The notes under the pieces are model-generated. The model made no database searches and was not told the origin of the DNA. It saw only the letters and a list, made by a program, of their open reading frames with translations. Both the position numbers and the translations under genes were made by a program. A stretch of 32,000 bases of DNA from Trichodesmium erythraeum IMS101. Lineage in GTDB: Bacteria > Cyanobacteriota > Cyanobacteriia > Cyanobacteriales > Microcoleaceae. Positions 7,757 to 32,000 of the stretch are shown piece after piece; the first letter of the stretch is position 1; each line of letters starts with the position of its first letter. Location of the stretch: NCBI RefSeq assembly GCF_000014265.1, contig NC_008312.1, forward strand, positions 1,890,001 through 1,922,000, written 5' to 3'.

Positions 7757-9140
7757 TTAACGGGACTTTAGTGAAAAAATAGTAAAAAAAAGGGTATAAT
7801 GTATACCTGATATGTATTTTACGTTAATTACTGGCCTGGGAAAAGTTTGATGAAAGAAACAACTTCAGTGGCCATGCCCTCTTGTTTCCATCGATGGTGC
7901 GATCGCTTTAACAATGTCTTTAAAACAAAAGCCCAAAAAACAGGGTTTAGGGAATATATAGGAGGATTACTCTTGAGAAAGCGATCGAAAAAACTTGTCT
8001 CAAATTGCCAACAACACTGTAGGTCACACGTACCACAAATTACGGCATTTTCTAGTTCGAGCAAATTGGTCTGTAGATGCTGTGAATGAGCGTCGTCTTC
8101 AAGTAATGTGGGAACGTCGCCAAACAAAACCTTCTCGATCCTATTGCTTTAATTATAGACGATTCAGGCCACAGAAAAAGTGGTAATTTTACTGCAGGAG
8201 TAGGGCGGCAATATATAGGAGAAATAGGAAAAACAGATAATGGTGTAGTCGTGGTGACAACTCATCTTTATGATGGAGTTAAAAGTCTACCTTTAGACAT
8301 AGCTTTGTATCAGAAAGCTGATTCTTTTCCAAAAGGAAAAAAAGACCCAGAATTTGTCAAGAAACCAGACGAGTGCAATGTCTCTAGTAGATCAATGTTT
8401 GTCCAGAGGACACCAACCAGAAATTGTGTTAATTGAAATTTGGCTATGGTAACAATACATCATTCTTAAATCAACTAGAGAAAAGAAGTTTAACTTATAT
8501 AGGAGGATTAGCTAAAAATCGAAAAGTCATCATTAAAAAACAAGATGACATTAAAGAGGAAATTAGATTAGACAAGCTGGCAGAAAGTATACCTCAGAAA
8601 GCTTTCAACTTAGTTCAACTAAGTACAAAAAATGCTAGAGAAGTTTGGGTAGCTACATTAGAAGTAGAAATATCTAGGATGTCAGGTCAAAAAACTATAG
8701 CTATCGTTATGAATGCTAAAAGTTTTTCTGAGGCCACTGATATTAACTATTATATCACTAATAGAGAAGACAAATATGTAACTCCTGAGTGGATATATTC
8801 TACTTATTCTCAAAGAAATTGGGTGGAAGTTTTCTACAGGGAAGCCAAAGGATGGTTAGGATTAAGAGAATATCAAGTCAGAGATAAAATCAGCCTTAAA
8901 AGGCATTTTATTTTAGTATTTTGTGCTTATACATTTATTATCTGGCATCAGTTAACAGGAGGTATAAGAAGGCGTTGGGCTAACAAACCATTAAATACGT
9001 TTACTGATACTTTAGAAGCATTTCGTACCGCAATATCTTATCGTTTTGTTGAGTGGTTAGATGAAAACATCGACGTATTTACCGCTCATAAAGAGAGTTT
9101 AGGGTTTGTTTGGGCTTGAAATTTGCTAAAGTCCCGTTAA
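7757..9140 (+). mobile_element. IS701-family-like element with 15-bp perfect terminal inverted repeats
   Basis: ttaacgggactttag at 7757-7771 and ctaaagtcccgttaa at 9126-9140 are exact reverse complements. The outer TTAA could instead be a 4-bp palindromic target duplication. The repeats enclose the frameshifted transposase at 7847-9119. Confidence 0.7.
7847..9119 (+). pseudogene. IS701-family DDE transposase, at least three frameshifts
   Basis: Four consecutive ORF pieces lie in frames 2, 0, 1 and 0 (7847-8089, 7995-8186, about 8149-8436, 8433-9119). Motifs include FREYIGGLLL, HKLRHFLVRANWSVDAVNERRLQVM, LIIDDSGHRKSGNFTAGVGRQYIGEIGKTDNGVVVVTTHLYDG and YSQRNWVEVFYREAKGWLGLREYQVRD. This order is typical of IS701-group enzymes. 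Confidence 0.75.
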
Positions 9141-10226
9141 GGAGTTCAAAAATCAAGGTAAATTAATTTAAGGTAAATTAATTTAAGATGGCACCTGCGC
9201 TCCCAACTATCCGAAAGACTTAAACCTATTAAATCATGGCATAATTGAAACCTAAATCATCTAAGATATTCTCTTAAAATGCTGTGAAAATCAGTTTCAC
9301 AAAAAAATCATTACTCACCGTCAAACAGCAAAAAAAAGAATATTTAAAGGTAGGTAAAAAAAGACGAATAACTACTAAAGCTATCAGGAAAGCCATCAAA
9401 AAATAACTGAAATATGTAAGTAAAAACTTAAGCACCCAAAAGGCTGTTAATTGAGAATGGTGTCCGTCATGAAAGTTTGAGTATTAGAAAATATAAAACA
9501 TTGTTGGATTTCTGTGAAATTTAGCGTCAACAATAATTGATGTGGGATAGCAAAGAACAACGAATAGATGGTATAATAATATGTTGAAATCAACCTGATA
9601 TGCGTCTAATAGTAAGAGTAAAAGGGGGAAAAGTACAGAATTTGGAGCCAAAATATCTGCAAGTTATATGGATAGATATATATTTTTACATAGAATAAGT
9701 TAGGAAAACTATAACGAATCTTGAGATTTAAAGGCTTAAGTTGAAAAGTGGAAAAACTATATAGGTTATTACCCAGAGTCAGTTCATGCAGACCAAATTT
9801 AGCTAACATGAGAAAACCGAAAATCATGTAAAAATAAAGGTATTAGAATCAGTGTTTCATTACGGAATATCACCCAAAAATTTTGATAAAGAACAGAAAA
9901 ACAAGCTCAGGAGTGATGAAATATTAGGTCACCATATTGAAGGTAAATTTGCCCAGCAGCAAAAGAGGAGTCATAAGAAAGTAATAGCTAAACTTTCTAA
10001 AACTTCTACAACTGCAATCGCAATTACTTTTTTTACTTTCTTAGTAATCAACCTTTCTACTCTCTTAAAAGAGGCTTTTTCTCTTTTTTGATATTTTTTG
10101 TCTGGGTCTTTTTAATAATTTCAACTTATAGTTGAATAAATGATGATAATTTTTGATAATCATCAATTTTTTTTGAATAATAAATCAACTATTTTCATAC
10201 TTTTTCAGAAAACCCTAATTTAGAAC

Positions 10227-10300: not shown

Positions 10301-10404
10301 CTATTTACTTACAAGTCAATTATCATATAATTCTTAACTATCAGGTCTTAGTATAAAAATAGAAGTACTAAATATCCCTATATCAAGAATCTAATAATTT
10401 TAAA

Positions 10405-10476
10405 CTCCCCGGGCAGGATTCGAACCTGCGACCAATCGGTTAACAGCCGACCGCTCTACCGCTGAGCTACCGAGGA
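10405..10476 (-). tRNA. trnN: tRNA-Asn (anticodon GTT), CCA not encoded
   Basis: The reverse complement is TCCTCGGTAGCTCAGCGGTAGAGCGGTCGGCTGTTAACCGATTGGTCGCAGGTTCGAATCCTGCCCGGGGAG. It has a 7-bp acceptor stem (one G:U) and a D loop AGCTCAGCGGTAGAGC. The anticodon stem is GTCGG/CCGAT with loop CTGTTAA. The T arm is GCAGG-TTCGAAT-CCTGC and the discriminator is G. Confidence 0.92.
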
Positions 10477-10635
10477 ACGAATGTTTAATCACTTATTCCT
10501 AAGTACCGATGATTTATTATAATCTTAATTCAAGAGATTTGACAACTCCTTTTCTATATTTTTTTATTATATTTAACATTAAAGAAATTTATAAATTGGA
10601 ATTGAGTTCTATAAAACTATGTTGTACGATAACAA

Positions 10636-14092: not shown

Positions 14093-14237
14093 GAGAATCA
14101 CGGTAAAAAAATTAAACAATGTTTACAAAAGTTCTTATATTCTGCTCAAGTAGAACACAATTATTAATACATTAATGATGGTGGAGGACAAACATTAGCC
14201 GTAGTTATCATAATTATTTGATTTGGAGAACTATTTA

Positions 14238-15296
14238 ATGACTGTAGCAGTCGGACGCCCACAATCTCAAAGAGGAGCATTTGATGTCCTCGATGACTGG
14301 CTAAAACGCGATCGCTTTGTATTCGTTGGTTGGTCTGGTATACTTCTCTTCCCATGTGCTTTCTTGTCCATTGGAGGATGGTTAACTGGGACTACCTTCG
14401 TCACTTCCTGGTATACCCACGGGTTAGCCAGTTCTTACCTAGAAGGATGTAATTTTCTAACAGTTGCAATTAGCAGCCCAGCTTATAGCATGGGACATTC
14501 CCTACTCTTCCTTTGGGGCCCAGAGGCTCAGTGGGACTTTGCCCGTTGGTGTCAAATCGGTGGTCTCTGGTCATTCACTGCCCTACACGGTGCATTTGCT
14601 CTAATTGGATTCTGCCTACGTCAGATTGAAATTGCTCGTTTGGTTGGAATACGTCCTTACAATGCTATTGCCTTCACAGGACCAATTGCAGTATTTGTAA
14701 GTGTATTTTTAATGTACCCATTGGGTCAATCAAGCTGGTTCTTTGCACCTAGTTTTGGTGTAGCTGGTATATTCAGATTTATCCTATTTTTACAAGGATT
14801 CCATAACTGGACACTCAACCCATTTCATATGATGGGTGTAGCAGGAATCTTGGGTGGTGCACTTTTGTGTGCTATTCATGGTGCTACAGTAGAAAACACA
14901 CTTTTCCAAGATGGAGAGGCAGCAAATACCTTCCGCGCATTTGAGCCTACTCAATCTGAAGAAACATATTCAATGGTGACAGCTAATCGTTTCTGGTCCC
15001 AAATTTTCGGTATTGCATTTTCCAACAAACGTTGGTTACACTTCTTCATGTTATTTGTACCAGTAACAGGATTGTGGATGAGTTCCATAGGTATAGTGGG
15101 TTTAGCATTCAACCTACGAGCTTATGACTTTGTATCTCAAGAGTTACGGGCAGCAGATGACCCAGAATTTGAAACATTTTATACCAAAAATATCTTGCTA
15201 AATGAAGGTATCCGAGCTTGGATGTCTCCTGCAGACCAACCACATCAAAACTTTATGTTCCCAGAGGAAGTACTACCTCGTGGTAACGCTCTTTAA
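14238..15296 (+). CDS. psbD: Photosystem II D2 reaction-centre protein
   Basis: The 352-aa product from ATG 14238 (the tracked ORF starts 5 codons earlier at a TTG) begins [34 protein letters not shown] and ends [15 protein letters not shown]. It is near-identical along its whole length to canonical cyanobacterial D2. Confidence 0.98.
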
Positions 15297-25883: not shown

Positions 25884-26810
25884 ATAATTACGGTTTGCTG
25901 AAAAATTATTTTTAAGAAGTAGGAAGTTAGGGGAGTGGTTAGGGACTTTGTATACAATGTATGTATAGGAGGAAGGTCGAATTATATATGAGATAGCCAC
26001 CTATGGATGTCTTTTGATTTTTCTCCAATTATTCTGACCACAATTCTAAATTTTTGAGGGTTTAGGAGGTGATACCTGACCCTTGTTTTTTTATCCTCAA
26101 GGGTAAGAGGGGTAAAAGGGATAAAGAGTATAGTAGTTAAGCAAAATTGCTTAAATCTATCAAAAAAATGCGTTTTTCAACAATACACTTTATTTTTCTC
26201 AACAAACAAATAAAATATTGTCACATGCCTTTTATACTTTGCAACCTTCTTTTTTATTTTTAAAATCTAACAATCTATAGTTAAATTATTGGGTTTGAGA
26301 TATCGGTGACTTCTCATGGTGAAATTACTATTTCATTACCTATTTATATAGAAGCAGATGATACTTTCTGTCGCCTTAGTTTATTTATGTGACTAGATAT
26401 TAGGAAAGTTTAAGCTACAGTACTTCGCTGACTTTCAGATCTATTAAAAAGTTGGTGTCGTGAGATTTTATGTTTGCTTGAAAGCTTACATATTTTGTCT
26501 ATGATTTCTAACAGTTAGATAGAGAATTATCACCTAATTATATATAGTATAGCAGATATTGATAGATAAATTACTCTGAGAAAGAGGATATGTTTTGTTA
26601 AGAATAAGAAGGATGTTTATTGGTATACTCCCGAAGTTATGCTTACAAAGTAAGTATAAAATTATTTACTCAGGGAATATCTAATAGAAGTTTTGATGTG
26701 AAGTGAGACCTTCTTTTTTTATTTATTTTAATATAAATATTATTATAATTATAATGACTGTATATATAATTGTCAACAGCTATATATAGAAAATTAGGAC
26801 GAACCAGATA

Positions 26811-26880
26811 GATAACCCCGGACTTTCATCCTGAGGCTATCGTTCGGAATAGCGCGGGATTTCCCGCCGGGGTAGTTAAA
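26811..26880 (+). repeat. Short GC-rich structured segment related to the 3' GC block of the repeat family (copy E, partial)
   Basis: gggatttcccgccggggtagttaaag resembles copy C, cagattccccggcgggtactaattaa. Nested pairings are visible. These are 26815-26821 with 26867-26873 (accccgg/ccggggt), gctat/atagc at 26836-26840 with 26849-26853, and cggg/cccg at 26855-26858 with 26863-26866. Confidence 0.4.
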
Positions 26881-26944
26881 GCATACGACTAAAAGTTAGG
26901 GTCGGCCTGAGATGCTCTTAGTCTTGGTGTGTCATAAGAGACTG

Positions 26945-27667
26945 CTATTGATTTTCTATAGAACTTGGCTGTTGATTATTTTGATTATTTTCAGAAGTTT
27001 GTGGAACTGGGCTCTGATGATTGGAAGTGGGTTTTAATTGTTGATTAGAGGGAGACTGCTGTTCATTTTCTATAGAATTTGGCTGTTGATGATTTTGATT
27101 ATTTTCAAAAGGTTGTTCTTCTTGGCCTTCAGGTTGTTTGTTAGGCTCGGTAAATACAAAAGCTTTAAGTGATTCACCAATAATACGGTTGTTTACGGAG
27201 TATCCTGGATAGGTAGTATAAACAATCTGGCCACTGGGTTCACAACTGGGGACAGGTTCATGGTTTTCAGGATTAAAGATCTCTCCTGGGTTAGCAATTA
27301 AGAAATGACCAGGAGGGTCGTCGTTAACAATCTCTTTTACTAATTTTAATCCTTTTTCTACCAAGTTCTTTAAATTTGTGGGAATAGGTTCCGGAAATTT
27401 AGCTGCTTCTGGAATTTGTAAATCAGTTAATATTGAATTTTTCAAGTCTTCGACAACTTGAGGAAATTTATATTCTCCTATTGAATTATTGTCAGTAAAA
27501 TATTGACTTCCTTGGTCAAATATATGTTTAGAAAATACATGTTTAATTTTGGCAATCTCTCGTTTACGATGAGCTTTTAAATCTGAATTTATTTGAGATA
27601 AATGATTGAATATTTCTTGACTAACTTTTGTGATTTCTTGATTTTTAAGTTGGATAAATTTGTCAGT
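26945..27667 (-). CDS. GrpE-like nucleotide-exchange-factor module with Q/N-rich repetitive tail; no canonical start codon at its 5' end
   Basis: The frame is open for 241 codons, from just after the TGA at 27668-27670 down to TAG 26945-26947. The first ATG/GTG/TTG is the TTG at 27445. The translation runs DLKAHRKREIAKIKHVFSKHIF ... NLVEKGLKLVKEIV ... GEIFNPENHEPV ... PGYSVNNRIIGESLKAFVF. These follow the order of E. coli GrpE landmarks ([25 protein letters not shown] / VEGIELTLKSMLDVV / PLDPNVHQAI / KGYTLNGRTIRAAMVTV). The assignment rests on my reading of motifs, not on a search. Confidence 0.5.
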   Translation of the reverse strand, partial: TDKFIQLKNQEITKVSQEIFNHLSQINSDLKAHRKREIAKIKHVFSKHIFDQGSQYFTDNNSIGEYKFPQVVEDLKNSILTDLQIPEAAKFPEPIPTNLKNLVEKGLKLVKEIVNDDPPGHFLIANPGEIFNPENHEPVPSCEPSGQIVYTTYPGYSVNNRIIGESLKAFVFTEPNKQPEGQEEQPFENNQNHQQPNSIENEQQSPSNQQLKPTSNHQSPVPQTSENNQNNQQPSSIENQ

Positions 27668-29836
27668 TCAAACATCTCTTTGGGGGCGTGATTCATCAGA
27701 AGTAATTGTGTTACTTGTGTCGCGATCACGATCGCTTAACTTACTTAAAAGAGAACTTTTCAATTTACGGAGTTTTTCATTTTCCCTCTTAAGCTCATTT
27801 ATTAGTATTTCTTGGCTTTGAATTTTTTGGTTTAGCAAGTATACTGTTTCCTTCAGCTCTTGCTTGTGTTTTTGGTTGTATCTTTTTTTTGGCTCTACAA
27901 TCATTAGGTAGATATTATAAAATTTTTCTAGAAGTTTTTTAGGATTTTTAAGTGCATTTTTAAGAGAGTTAATTTGCTGTTTTTCTTGTTCATGATTATG
28001 ATTGGAATACTGAATATCAAAATTATTTAATAACCAATTCAAAAAATCATTATTATTTTTATATACTCTCAAGCAATTTTCCCAATTTTCGGGATTATCA
28101 CTTTGCTGTTTTTGACTTATAATTGTATCCTTAAATTGATTAAATTCCCTAGAGGATGAAACACCATAGGTTAATCGACTCCGCCTGGCGCGAATGATGC
28201 CTGGAGCAACACCGAAAGATGCTGCCCCCTTTAAAATGGCAACACCCGGACGTGGAGGCATAACAATTTTCTTGGCCTTGCTTCCAAACTCTTTTTTAAT
28301 TCGCTGCCGGAGCACAGGGGAAGTAGAAAATCCGCCAACAAGAAAGATGATGTCAACTTCTTCATCTCCCAACTCTTTAAATTGATTTTTAACTGTTGAA
28401 ACTAAACCATCTAAAGTTGGACGGAAAATATTTTCCATTGTTGAGTAACTTAGATGAATATTTTTATCATCCCCGTTTTGTTCATCAGCTAGCTGTTCGA
28501 GGATTTTTGCTTTACGCTTGGAGATAAAATTGTAAAGTCTGGTTGGAATGTTAAAGTAAATAACATCACCACTAGTTTCTGGATCGAAGTTGCACTTTGT
28601 TCGTTCCCACTCCTCCATCATCTTCAAATAATCAACAGGCTCCTGATCATGGAAACCCTTCACCATTTCAGCAGAGAGTTTTTCGGTCAAATATTCTTGA
28701 AAGCTTTTATCTACATATATCGAGCCAAAAGGACCACCTGTCCCAGGAGCTACCTCATCAAGTCCACCATCTTTGACCAACTTATGAACAGTGATACGGA
28801 AAATATTTTCCATTGTTGAGTAGCTTAGATGAATATTTTCATCATCCCCGTTTTGTTCATCAGCTAGCTGTTCGAGGATTTTTGCTTTACGCTTGGAGAT
28901 AAAATTGTAAAGTCTGGTTGGAATGTTAAAGTAAATAACATCACCACTAGTTTCTGGATCGAAGTTGCACTTTGTTCGTTCCCACTCCTCCATCATCTTC
29001 AAATAACCAACAGGATCCTGATCATGGAAACCCTTCACCATTTCAGCAGAGAGTTTTTCGGTCAAATATTCTTGAAAGCTTTTATCTACATATATCGAGC
29101 CAAAAGGACCACCTGTCCCAGGAGCTACCTCATCAAGTCCACCATCTTTGACCAACTTATGAACAGTGATATCGACTGTACCGCCACCGCAGTCAATTAT
29201 CATAATCTTATTACCAGGTGTTAGTGCATTTTTATCTTCCTCTTGGCAAAAGATAGCAGCTGCTTCTGGCTCTAATACAAGGAAAAGACGTTCAGCTTCA
29301 TCATCAGAGGAATTAATTAATCCAGCTTTTCGTGCCGCACGACGCATCAAATCTTTATCTTCATTTTTCCAAATTGCTGGTATACTTAAACACCACCTAA
29401 TTTCTTGATCCTTTAATTCTCCAGAGGTACTGTTTTTAATTTCCTTGAGAGCTTCGTCTTTAATGAGACGAATATATTTAGCTATCAAGTCAATAACATA
29501 AATTTTTTCTCCGTTATTTTTATTAATGACATAAGGTCAACTTTCGTCTTTTTTACCAGAATGTAACTCCATTTTAAAGTTACGGGTAAAGTAATAATCT
29601 TTAGCAGTTCCCTGAGCACGAAATTGAGCCAGTTTTTTCATTGCTGTATAGCCCCAAGCTTCTACTTCTCCTGTAGAAGAAAGCAATAAATAGGTTGCGG
29701 TTTTAGGATAAGACATGGGGTTATCAGGCCACAGGTCTCGAAAGACAGAAACGTCCGACTCTTTAAACTTATAAGCAAACCCAGAACGAGATGTTCCGAA
29801 GTCAATTGCTACGACGACCTCAAATGATTTGTCCAT
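27668..29836 (-). pseudogene. HSPA12-type Hsp70-superfamily ATPase, interrupted by an in-frame TGA and carrying a 125-codon internal duplication
   Basis: ORF pieces 29836-29537 (99 aa) and 29488-27668 (606 aa) are in the same frame, and the 16 codons between them are also open. Motifs are VVVAIDFGTSRSGFAY (phosphate 1), FKMELH, IRWCLSIPAIWKNEDKDLMRRAARKAGL, LVLEPEAAAIFC, IIDCGGGTVDITVH (phosphate 2), GGPFGSIYVD, IIFLVGGFSTSPVL (adenosine motif) and AILKGAASFGV ... RRSRLTYGV. These are collinear with the HSPA12A/B branch rather than DnaK. The C-terminus is coiled-coil and Q/N/K-rich, with no DnaK-type substrate-binding domain. Confidence 0.8.
28422..29171. repeat. Tandem direct duplication, 2 x 375 bp, near-identical, in frame within the Hsp70-like gene
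   Basis: Unit 28422-28796 repeats at 28797-29171. Both begin cggaaaatattttccattgttgagta and end cttatgaacagtgata. I see only about 5 mismatches (gtaactt/gtagctt, atattttta/atattttca, aataatcaacaggctcc/aataaccaacaggatcc). At protein level, ITVHKLVKDGGLDEV ... HLSYSTMENIFR occurs twice. Confidence 0.95.
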
Positions 29837-29853
29837 CTAATTTACCTAATTTA

Positions 29854-31656
29854 TCAAAATAAAGTTTGTCCATGTCCATCTACTCCAATACAGCCCTTAA
29901 TCTTCAGCTTTCGCCAAGTATCTAGTAAAGTTTCTGCTATAATCACGTAATTTTCTCTTCCAAGTAATAATATAAACTGGTTTAGTCTGTCTAAATATTC
30001 GTCATCTCCTGAGACTAAAACATATTTCATCACCTCTAAATTACTAACCTGATCTAAAGATTTAATTCCACGCATTAATAACCAAGATTCTACAGATTTT
30101 TCTATCTGTTCTTTCGCCCAAAACTTGTTATCTAGATAAATCAAACTACTAGCAAAATCTATCAGCATTTCTGGAACCCAAGCCGATTCTTCTTCCCCTA
30201 ATTGCTGATATAAAGATTGATAAAAATAAACAAGATACTCAATAATTTTTTCTCGTTCTTCTGAGGGAATTTCTTCTAAAAGATTAGGTAATAATTCAGG
30301 AAGCAAAGGGCGTTTGCGTTCTTGAGGTGGAACATCTAAGAGAAAATATGCATCGGCGGTTCTACCTATTAAGAGAGAAACTTGAATAGCAATGAAACGA
30401 GAAAAAGTTTCTTTGTCTGAATCAAGAACTGTATAGTTACGATTAGGTAAATTGTTAGGATCTTGACCTCTTTCTAACAGTCTCTTTTCTCGTTTTATCA
30501 ACTGTAAATCTGCCAAAAACTTCTTAACTACTTCCTCACCCCAATCTGCATCAAACTCTTCTGTTGTTCCCGTTTCTATTTTTTCCTGATTTCGTTGTTT
30601 TTCCCATTTTAATAACCTTTCTTTAACAGCAAAATATAATAATTCTAGCCAAGACAAAGGATCTTCTTTAGGCAAAGAATCAATATAAGGTTCTGGAAAA
30701 TTTTGACTCCAATAACTATATTCTAGATGATAGTAAGTTCTTTCAACTAATGTGTTGATAACTAACATTGGTTTACTTTTCAAACCACTAAAAATAGTTT
30801 TAAAAGCTCCCTCTCCAGACAAAGCTTTTGTCATCCATGCACCGGTTAAAAAATCGACTTTTCTACCAGTTTGTTTATACTTTTCGAGGAAAGCTCTTAA
30901 CCGTCTATTTAATCCTTGTTCAATATCAGGAAAAGTATTAGGTTGGCTATTTGCACCAGCACCAGCACGGTCATATTTAAGAATAGGTGGAACAAATAAA
31001 ATGAGTAAATTATCAGATTTTACAATTTCCTTAATTTGTTCATCATCCAGAGTAAGAGGCCAATTATTTAATCGGCGTTGTTGACGAATAACTGTGAGAT
31101 TATTTTGCAAATCAATAGCTTTTAATTCTCTAGCTAATGTAGCATCTATTTCTTTTAACTGAAGTTGTAAATCTTTTTGTTTTTCCTGTAAAAATATTTG
31201 TAATTGAGCCCGAAAAAGTTCTAATTGATGAGCATTTTCACGATTTAATTTACCCTCCTGAATTTGATGCTCCCTATTCAATCTTGCTAACTCAGTTTGT
31301 AATTCCCGATTTAACTTTCCTTCTTCAGCCTGAAATAAACGATTAATAGTTCCTAACTCAGTTTGTAATTGACGATTTAATTCTCCTTGTTGAGCTTGAA
31401 ACTGTCTATTAAGATTACCTTGCTCATACTGAAATTGAAAATTCCTCTCCTCCATAACAGTTTTTAACTGTATTTGAGCAATCTGTATTTGTTGTTGAAT
31501 ACTATCTCTTTTTTCATAATATTCAATTAAATTATCATTATTGATCCGCAGAGTTTCCGATGACATTCTTGCAGACCTAGTTCCCCAAAAAAAATCGCTG
31601 AATCCCTCTGCTAAATGTTGAAACCAATTTTTTTTATTAGGTAAAAATTTTTCCAT
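29854..31656 (-). CDS. 600-aa protein: N-terminal coiled coil with six 11-residue xGxLNRxxQxx repeats plus uncharacterised C-terminal region of about 400 aa
   Basis: The long ORF is intact and ends 17 nt upstream of the Hsp70-like ATG at 29836, on the same strand, so the genes are probably co-transcribed. Residues 79-144 read QGNLNRQFQAQ QGELNRQLQTE LGTINRLFQAE EGKLNRELQTE LARLNREHQIQ EGKLNRENAHQ. The region after NNWPLTLDDEQIKEIVKSDNLLILFVPPILKY has no motif I recognise. Confidence 0.7.
   Translation of the reverse strand: MEKFLPNKKNWFQHLAEGFSDFFWGTRSARMSSETLRINNDNLIEYYEKRDSIQQQIQIAQIQLKTVMEERNFQFQYEQGNLNRQFQAQQGELNRQLQTELGTINRLFQAEEGKLNRELQTELARLNREHQIQEGKLNRENAHQLELFRAQLQIFLQEKQKDLQLQLKEIDATLARELKAIDLQNNLTVIRQQRRLNNWPLTLDDEQIKEIVKSDNLLILFVPPILKYDRAGAGANSQPNTFPDIEQGLNRRLRAFLEKYKQTGRKVDFLTGAWMTKALSGEGAFKTIFSGLKSKPMLVINTLVERTYYHLEYSYWSQNFPEPYIDSLPKEDPLSWLELLYFAVKERLLKWEKQRNQEKIETGTTEEFDADWGEEVVKKFLADLQLIKREKRLLERGQDPNNLPNRNYTVLDSDKETFSRFIAIQVSLLIGRTADAYFLLDVPPQERKRPLLPELLPNLLEEIPSEEREKIIEYLVYFYQSLYQQLGEEESAWVPEMLIDFASSLIYLDNKFWAKEQIEKSVESWLLMRGIKSLDQVSNLEVMKYVLVSGDDEYLDRLNQFILLLGRENYVIIAETLLDTWRKLKIKGCIGVDGHGQTLF
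31225..31422 (-). repeat. Intragenic 33/66-nt periodic repeat encoding the hendecad array
   Basis: On the plus strand, ctaactcagtttgtaatt recurs at 31287 and 31353, a period of 66 nt (22 aa). The peptide shows six 11-aa units. Confidence 0.8.
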
Positions 31657-32000
31657 TTATTAGACTCTAATTTAATCAATAAACTACAAAGTATTAGACT
31701 TCTATTATCCCTAAGTTTTCCAATACCATAATGGATAAAGTTAATTGCTTCTAAGGTATTTCATTTAATTTATCAGTTACTAGTATTTTGATGTAAAGCC
31801 AGAGGTTTAAAATATGTATTATACTAAATACACTTATGAAAAGCTTCTTGTTTTTTTAATCCTTTAAACCTTTCAGCATAAATATCAGTAGCATAAGTAT
31901 CTTAGTTTTTAATAAAGCTCTTGTGTAAACCGGACTTAACATTAAGAATACTTCTTTTATCCCTTTGAAAGGGCAGGTTTAAGACCTGACTTTTTGGTAA

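Follow-up and report, generated by a model that had tools for sequence, protein, structure and literature searches.

Derivatives of Hsp70 that lack the canonical substrate-binding domain occur in abundance both in complex bacteria and in animals, where they are represented by HSPA12; the function of HSPA12 is unknown, and the bacterial DnaK derivatives are very diverse and functionally unknown as well (2026 review, PMC13580251). Hsp70 and GrpE also occur together as a theme of the GAP1-N2 DO-GTPase conflict systems of actinobacteria and firmicutes, a theme that is defined by the DO-GTPase, GAP1 and FNIII-repeat proteins, which are often fused to J domains (Kaur, Burroughs, Iyer and Aravind 2020, PMC7159879). 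Here, a locus of Trichodesmium erythraeum IMS101 is described that lies within an analyzed stretch of 32,000 nucleotides (contig NC_008312.1, positions 1,890,001 to 1,922,000), referred to as the window. In this locus a gene for a 600-aa coiled-coil protein is followed on the minus strand by a gene for an Hsp70-like ATPase and by a third gene, the product of which ends in a GrpE-like domain. The locus is a broken-down copy of a widespread, unnamed gene module, and two of its three genes are dead here. As the best overall explanation we regard it as probable that a conserved module with an Hsp70-like ATPase core and a GrpE-like exchange partner is decaying at this site.

The locus resembles the DnaK-GrpE(-DnaJ) system in that a motif-conserved Hsp70-family ATPase is encoded beside a coiled-coil protein with a GrpE-type helix-plus-beta domain at its C-terminal end, and nucleotide exchange on an actin-fold ATPase is likely the shared principle. 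However, the ATPase scores far below the equivalog cut-offs of DnaK, HscA and HscC, and a beta-rich DUF8340 domain replaces the substrate-binding domain and lid of DnaK. The partner remains below the Pfam GrpE threshold and is larger than E. coli GrpE in most cyanobacteria. In contrast to the DnaK-DnaJ-GrpE operon, a J-protein is linked in none of 80 loci with relatives of the ATPase, i.e. no open reading frame (ORF) with a J domain was found within 8 kb in any of them. With the GAP1-N2 systems the module shares the presence of Hsp70 and GrpE outside housekeeping proteostasis, in bacteria of multicellular habit and in the company of variable signalling or effector genes. In contrast to these systems, no GTPase, GAP1 or J domain was detected in the Trichodesmium locus or the sampled neighbours, and the 600-aa family goes unmentioned in the respective study (PMC7159879). 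Eukaryotic HSPA12A and HSPA12B are comparable as lid-less Hsp70 derivatives. To our knowledge, HSPA12 has no GrpE-like partner.

CnuD of the CoCoNuT type III McrBC systems (PMC11090510) likewise combines an Hsp70-like domain with coiled-coil proteins in a predicted defence context. CnuD is, however, bound to McrB/McrC homologs and has degenerate ATPase motifs, whereas in the module described here the motifs are intact, McrBC is missing and a GrpE-like partner is present; CnuD was set aside because of this different context. Two further candidates were considered and set aside on the accessible part of their sources: All4144, presented there as a 214-aa GrpE with an HTH domain that acts on DnaK (bioRxiv 10.1101/2025.04.14.648684), and the DnaK1 hormogonium system of Nostoc (PMC9239167). 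The pair of the ATPase and its unannotated GrpE-like partner, taken together with the 600-aa family, seems to be a variant, of a kind of system already known, that has not been described so far.

Decay of the locus in Trichodesmium

The ORF coordinates, the 17-nt gap, the shared reading frame and the motifs given in a preliminary description of the locus were all reproduced in the window. The 600-aa ORF is separated by 17 nt from the ATG of the Hsp70-like gene at 29836. This gene had been taken for a single ORF, but is split by a TGA codon into two ORFs of 99 aa and 606 aa in the same frame, the latter at 29488..27668 (-). The motifs AIDFGTSRSG, EPEAAAIF, DCGGGTVDITVH, LVGGFSTSPVL and RRSRLTYGV are all found in the window translation, the last four of them within the 606-aa ORF. 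Past the second TGA (27670-27668) the frame stays open for 240 more codons, to 26945. The 241-codon frame at 27667..26945 (-), which is in frame with the preceding ORF and holds GEIFNPENHEPV...GYSVNNRIIGESLKAFV, is not a protein in its own right, but the C-terminal part of a 414-aa coiled-coil protein.

An intact syntenic triad is present in Trichodesmium sp. MAG_R02 (L009/L013). It encodes proteins of 600, 570 and 414 aa and is followed by the same downstream genes as in the window, which encode PALP-domain, SLH/OprB-domain and GAF/HD-domain proteins. Relative to this locus, the first stop results from a change of GGA (Gly100) to TGA at 29539-29537, with GGA being present in L009 as well as in the orthologs P0002 and P0004, and the second stop from a change of TTA (Leu155 of the 414-aa protein), which is retained in L009, to TGA at 27670-27668. 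By blastn, window position 28133 corresponds to L009 position 3625 and window position 28132 to L009 position 4094, so that L009 3626-4093 (468 bp) is deleted. Lost with it were ~127 residues at the C-terminal end of the ATPase (its beta-rich domain), the spacer between the two genes and ~18 codons at the start of the third gene. Since the two genes were thereby fused, the odd tail of the 606-aa ORF is the N-terminus of the third protein. Both the in-frame stops and the duplication noted previously were found, the latter as a 375-bp tandem repeat.

The ratio of non-synonymous to synonymous substitution rates (dN/dS) was computed against L009. It amounts to 0.95 and 0.83 for the segments of the ATPase gene, to 0.99 for the third gene as a whole and to 0.12 for the 600-aa gene, which differs from its L009 counterpart at six codons synonymously and at three non-synonymously. 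An uninterrupted ORF of family length under purifying selection, as expected for a functional gene, is thus seen for the 600-aa gene, but neither for the ATPase gene nor for the GrpE-like gene. An identical 600-aa protein is encoded on at least 22 contigs. At this locus the ATPase and its GrpE-like partner are pseudogenes in step-wise decay, which evolve neutrally, and the 600-aa gene alone is intact. The earlier proposal of a working three-component system therefore does not hold for this copy, in which two genes are fused by a deletion and each carries a premature stop.

The stops are common to four independent assemblies (L001-L004). The 375-bp duplication is present in the window and in L001 and missing from L002-L004, where the ORF comprises 481 aa instead of 606 aa. 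A further strain (L012) kept Gly100 and shares the deletion and the second stop. In L012 the 600-aa gene is split (8181-9983; 337 and 215 aa) while the ATPase still carries Gly100; different strains have thus lost different parts of the module. The locus is therefore a clear case of step-wise gene decay differing among close Trichodesmium strains. The loss of function in the window copy lowers the value of this locus, but leaves that of the module unaffected.

The two copies of the duplicated segment in the window differ from each other (DPVG/EPVD, DDENIH/DDKNIH) at sites where single-copy strains also differ, which hints at unequal recombination between alleles. The copy number of the tail repeat is strain-variable as well, with one extra copy in L012 (12011-12625) and an ORF of 204 aa as compared to 166 aa. 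The terminal TAG of the window frame is CAG in the MAG_R02 ortholog.

The ATPase, its GrpE-like partner and the 600-aa family

Pfam HSP70 (PF00012) matches the translation of window 27671-29536 with 50.8 bits (cut-off 20.6, E=1e-13) and the intact 570-aa ortholog P0004 with 48 bits, and the best PDB sequence matches of the ATPase are the nucleotide-binding domains of DnaK proteins. In 18 aligned relatives D12-F-G-T, K88, E189-P-E191, D215-x-G-G-G-T-x-D222 and G376-G-F are invariant or nearly so, and these motifs are found in the window translation, too. In contrast, the equivalog models of DnaK, HscA and HscC failed and covered the nucleotide-binding domain only, with 44.7 bits against 822 for TIGR02350 and 43.9 against 743 for HscA. 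The assignment to a divergent, non-DnaK branch of the Hsp70 superfamily is borne out by these scores of about 45 bits, as compared to cut-offs above 600, together with the Pfam match. The C-terminal ~125 residues make up a beta-rich domain of their own, to which precomputed Pfam annotation assigns PF27033 (DUF8340). Hundreds of relatives of ~570-590 aa exist, for which the sources use the name "Hsp70 family protein". The N-terminal motif AIDFGT-S/T-x-SG-Y/F-A-Y is one that we take to resemble HSPA12.

For the third protein, a profile of the C-terminal part (36 sequences) was compared by hhalign with a profile of 11 GrpE sequences from E. coli and plasmid records. The conserved C-terminal block G-x-x-F-[DN]-P-x-x-H-E ... 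P-G-Y-x-V-x-x-R ... K-A-x-V-F-T pairs with the GrpE signature G-x-x-F-D-P-x-x-H-E-A ... G-Y-x-L-x-x-R-v-i-R-P-A-x-V at a probability of 93.1% (P=3.2e-7, score 45.5), whereas the best score among 40 column-shuffled GrpE alignments was 17.0, and a reversed and two unrelated profiles gave at most 17. An AlphaFold2 (AF2) model of the intact 414-aa protein, built with 42 sequences, reached a predicted local distance difference test (pLDDT) value of ~90 for residues 170-350 and consists of a 75-residue helix, four more helices and a five-strand beta domain, in this order. The model of a 111-residue fragment from the window itself (27134-27466) had a pLDDT of 82.8. In a Foldseek search of this fragment against 350,542 PDB chains, GrpE or GrpEL1 structures made up nine of the ten best hits; GrpE-type hits were 9blt, 1dkg_A (probability 0.95), 9bls, 3a6m, 9a81, 4ani and 8gb3. 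Overall, we regard a remote homology of the C-terminal helices and the beta domain to GrpE as well supported.

Of the preliminary description of the third frame as GrpE-like, the remote relationship thus stands, being detected by hhalign, pointed to by Foldseek at modest E-values and missed by the Pfam GrpE profile. The proposed correspondence of an HRKRE-type block in the long helix is not established, because the hhalign alignment carries no confidence in that part. The third-gene proteins range from 210 to 650 aa and are in most cyanobacteria two to three times as long as E. coli GrpE; they are labelled "hypothetical protein" in the sources (with one DUF465-type label), and none is listed with a Pfam domain. 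In two Oscillatoriales loci (L014 4807-6261 and L015 9742-11490) the GrpE-like proteins carry an HTH_3 domain after the beta domain (best E=7.6e-9).

The hendecad coiled coil and the unassignable C-terminal region previously ascribed to the 600-aa protein were both confirmed, by a period of 33 nt in Tandem Repeats Finder (TRF) and by the lack of a match in the libraries searched. The 33-nt period at 31287-31377 translates into 11-residue repeats of the form G-x-L-N-R-x-x-Q-x-E-x. The family comprises 365 relatives at E<=1e-3 in a 50%-identity library; Pfam, NCBIfam and PADLOC gave no match to the protein, and PDB sequences none to its core. A PDB profile search with the family found matches confined to fused TPR and FGE-sulfatase parts, none of them in the core. 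Among 55 aligned members, 20 carry a C-terminal FGE-sulfatase domain, ~21 TPRs and 9 WD40 repeats, with GUN4 and a dynamin GTPase as single cases. Such fused forms occur without Hsp70 (L104) or with dynamins instead (L105). In L105 (1079-7414) a 600-like core is joined to a dynamin-type GTPase in a protein of 1464 aa, and downstream of its gene a 284-aa protein and another dynamin-like one are encoded; here the 600-like scaffold may pair with a different class of NTPase.

Conservation of the gene pair and alternative explanations

Relatives of the ATPase were collected by a scan of one genome per species, which yielded 154 encoded relatives, and 80 loci were fetched, in which neighbour homologs were assigned by iterated profile searches of the locus ORFs. 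These loci span filamentous cyanobacteria, Thiotrichaceae (Thiomargarita, Parabeggiatoa), Flavobacteriaceae (a flavobacterium), Chloroflexota (Ardenticatenaceae), Planctomycetota, Myxococcota and, in large number, Streptomyces and further actinomycetes. Directly downstream of the ATPase gene, 74 of the 80 loci carry a homolog of the third gene, and directly upstream of it, 14 carry a homolog of the 600-aa gene; the conserved neighbourhood suspected before was thus found. The 14 upstream homologs comprise eight of full length, five short Nostocales forms of ~220-300 aa, reduced to the N-terminal coil and ~150 residues at the C-terminus, and one that is fused to a truncated ATPase. Additionally, in L108/L109 the gene for a metagenomic relative of the 600-aa protein (49% identical) precedes genes for an Hsp70-like protein and for a protein of 323 aa. 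The robust core of the module is therefore the pair of ATPase and third gene, with the 600-aa protein as a branch-specific third member.

The absence of a J-protein, as noted earlier, holds inside the window and for the 80 loci. Just beyond position 32000, however, Trichodesmium has a divergently oriented gene for a DnaJ-domain protein of 224 aa (Pfam DnaJ E=3.5e-22), at a distance of ~550 bp upstream from the 600-aa gene. Since J domains are missing from the 80 loci, this gene is not a conserved part of the module, and its adjacency is probably lineage-specific.

In cyanobacteria the neighbours of the ATPase pair include WD40 proteins, a double AAA+ ATPase, a second Hsp70-like protein, accompanied by a coiled-coil protein, and a beta-flower protein of ~230 aa; in Streptomyces they include STAND NTPase-TPR and Ser/Thr kinase-TPR proteins, PP2C and patatin. 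In a previous survey, FGE-sulfatase ("FGS") and GUN4 were described as effector domains almost confined to cyanobacterial conflict systems, and superstructure-forming repeats and STAND NTPases as being among the commonest effectors across the conflict systems surveyed (PMC7159879). The variable neighbours and the domain fusions suggest a role of the module in conflict or stress signalling.

That the three ORFs still work as a three-component system at this locus, by read-through or as separate polypeptides, would be in line with the fact that the 468-bp deletion, the 375-bp duplication and both stops all preserve the reading frame, and with a 600-aa gene that is intact and looks constrained. 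Nevertheless, we consider it very improbable, as the ATPase has lost the C-terminal domain found in 18 of 18 aligned relatives, the stops take the place of Gly and Leu codons, and dN/dS is ~0.8-1.0 in both broken genes. Moreover, the lesions vary by strain (presence of the duplication, and in L012 the first stop and the 600-aa gene), which is the pattern of ongoing decay. It is even harder to believe that the stops and the duplication are artefacts of assembly or sequencing. The differences between the duplicate copies at DPVG/EPVD, where single-copy strains differ too, could mean collapsed or expanded alleles; both TGA codons, however, were seen in four assemblies of differing source and run, and the duplication was recovered twice, in the window and in L001.

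The preferred reading, a decaying copy of a conserved module with a GrpE-like exchange partner, has to be set against a number of observations that weigh against it. The low dN/dS of the 600-aa gene is based on just nine differences. Only a minority of the loci contains the 600-aa partner, relatives of which also exist without any Hsp70 (L104, L105), making the 600-aa protein an accessory of one branch rather than a universal component. Pfam GrpE (PF01025) scored 11.4 bits (E=0.27) on the window fragment, below its cut-off of 25.8, and matched 0 of 36 family members at E<=0.01. Pfam and NCBIfam scans gave no GrpE match for the intact 414-aa ortholog. A PDB-sequence profile search with the trimmed C-terminal domain retrieved no GrpE, and with the full-length alignment coiled-coil noise alone. 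In Foldseek, the full-length model returned globin-like helical noise without GrpE, and the fragment hits had E=0.013-0.5 and template modelling (TM) scores of 0.35-0.39, i.e. E-values above 0.01 and TM below 0.4. These failed searches and low fold scores, as well as the four helices that separate the long helix and the beta domain in the AF2 model, as compared to two in GrpE, would fit a third protein that is no GrpE homolog, with a convergent or unrelated beta domain, and that serves as a coiled-coil adaptor or as a client of the ATPase. We regard this as unlikely, because the hhalign match falls specifically on the GrpE signature (G-x-x-F-D/N-P-x-x-H-E ... G-Y-x-h-x-x-R ... A-x-V), with a score far above the controls, because GrpE structures took nine of the ten best places among all PDB chains searched, and because obligate adjacency to an Hsp70-family ATPase is expected of a dedicated exchange factor. 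With regard to function, PADLOC-DB 2.0 contained no match for the 600-aa protein, for P0004 or for a Streptomyces third-gene homolog; the sole match of the 414-aa protein was a weak one to BilC (E=0.0048) at residues 121-203, in its coiled-coil N-terminal half. The intact module could also be a specialized cell-biological chaperone set, e.g. for the assembly of a filament-forming coiled-coil protein, without a role in conflict or defence. Further points in favour of such a set are that the partners are long coiled-coil proteins, that the host taxa are filamentous or giant bacteria and that the Trichodesmium neighbours (PALP-domain, SLH/OprB-domain and GAF/HD-domain proteins) look ordinary. It is nonetheless the less probable option, in view of the lineage-variable neighbours, which range from STAND NTPase-TPR, Ser/Thr kinase-TPR, PP2C and patatin to WD40, double AAA+ ATPase and beta-flower proteins, of the fusion of 600-aa relatives to TPR plus FGE-sulfatase and to GUN4, i.e. 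effector domains of conflict systems (PMC7159879), and of a patchy distribution and easy loss, which fit an accessory system.

Possible role of the module and further observations

In our reading, the core of the module is a DnaK-unlike ATPase of ~570 aa, in which a nucleotide-binding domain that holds every catalytic motif is combined with a beta-rich domain at the C-terminus. Its partner, encoded immediately downstream, is a coiled-coil protein with a C-terminus that is a remote homolog of the GrpE helix-plus-beta arrangement. This protein may dimerize through its long helix and act as the dedicated nucleotide-exchange factor of the ATPase. As no J-protein is linked, it is probably a partner or client rather than DnaJ that sets off the ATPase cycle. 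In one branch (Trichodesmium, other Oscillatoriales, Thiotrichaceae and a flavobacterium) the upstream 600-aa protein would both trigger the ATPase and be acted on by it, and elsewhere other lineage-specific partners would do so. The TPR plus FGE-sulfatase, WD40, GUN4 and dynamin modules of the 600-aa relatives favour a role as an ATP-driven switch. Most likely, such a switch would act in stress or conflict, where it would remodel or assemble a scaffold or sensor protein of the coiled-coil type.

A more far-reaching and rather doubtful idea is that the ATPase and the GrpE-like protein form a J-protein-independent, self-contained nucleotide switch that is conserved in several phyla of complex bacteria, filamentous and giant ones among them, and that has swappable scaffold, sensor and effector partners (STAND NTPases, kinases, patatin, beta-flower proteins and members of the 600-aa coiled-coil family). 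Such a switch would represent an unnamed class of chaperone-based conflict or stress-signalling systems and could be the prokaryotic counterpart of HSPA12. An ATPase family with its own adjoining GrpE-like protein gives a testable idea of how such ATPases cycle, and the variable partners provide a handle for finding what they act on.

Two types of loci with altered gene composition were observed. In Oscillatoria sp. PCC 10802 (L035 6444-9302) a 952-aa ORF combines 600-like residues 31-513 with a truncated Hsp70-like nucleotide-binding domain, and the GrpE-like gene is missing downstream; this ORF represents a Rosetta-stone fusion or, alternatively, one more copy in decay. Extended same-strand clusters are present in Nostocales (L016 2947-14215 and, similarly, L017, L020, L021 and L026). 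They start with genes for a WD40 protein, an 872-aa double AAA+ ATPase and a short 600-like protein, followed by the Hsp70-like and GrpE-like genes, a second Hsp70-like gene (536 aa) and one for a 358-aa pure coiled-coil protein.

In the closest relatives outside Trichodesmium the 600-aa gene is directly preceded by a gene for a ~230-aa protein. The conserved C-terminal region of this protein matches Pfam beta-flower PF21785 in L014, L015 and L041, below the gathering score, and the L108 copy is linked through BLASTP similarity alone. A tblastn search gave no match to a remnant of this gene in Trichodesmium. The coordinates of all features are listed in Table 1.

Table 1. Coordinates of features in the window and in related loci (positions refer to the window unless a locus is named)
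Feature	Position	Strand	Basis or remark
600-aa gene, intact	29854..31656	-	ORF; N-terminal coiled coil with 11-residue repeats, then ~400-aa region
Hendecad-repeat stretch, coiled coil of the 600-aa protein	31287..31377	-	TRF period 33, 2.8 copies
Hsp70-like pseudogene, 5' fragment, codons 1-99, phosphate-1 motif AIDFGTSRSG	29537..29836	-	ends at premature TGA
Remaining Hsp70-like nucleotide-binding domain (EPEAAA, DCGGGTVD, LVGGFS)	28133..29536	-	Pfam HSP70; matches L009 2232-3625
In-frame 375-bp tandem duplication (125 codons) in the ATPase domain	28421..29171	-	2.0 copies, 98% matching
Junction of the 468-bp in-frame deletion	28132..28133	-	blastn against L009
Third gene, N-terminal coiled-coil part fused to the ATPase remnant	27668..28132	-	alignment to L009 414-aa protein
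Third gene, C-terminal part: helices, GrpE-like beta domain, Q/N-rich tail	26945..27667	-	reading frame, L009 alignment
GrpE-like beta domain (G-E-I-F-N-P-E-N-H-E ... P-G-Y-S-V-N-N-R ... K-A-F-V-F-T)	27146..27319	-	hhalign, AF2, Foldseek
Q/N-rich tail repeat, 114-nt spacing (38 codons)	26938..27116	-	repeat search
DnaJ-domain gene	about 32200-32880, past the window end at 32000	+	L001 1914-2588, L012 6960-7634
Truncated DDE transposase	8433-9119
tRNA-Asn	10404-10477
Photosystem II reaction-centre (Photo_RC) gene	14223-15296
~230-aa upstream protein	L014 496-1200, L015 5449-6129, L041 4674-5384, L108 374-1078

The rest of the window is poor in ORFs: its first 25 kb (1-25000) contain nine that reach 90 aa or more, and a YacP-like NYN gene and an ABC ATPase gene are located in this part. 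Rfam, tRNA and repeat scans of the window detected tRNA-Asn only and no CRISPR-like array; instead of the region rich in repeats and spacers described before, only scattered short repeats are present. Just downstream of the third gene, a stretch at 26810-26935 (-), which occurs as a single copy in the window and has no Rfam match, stands out as G+C-rich within an A+T-rich spacer and is predicted to fold into stem-loops (-36.4 kcal/mol, z=-2.3).

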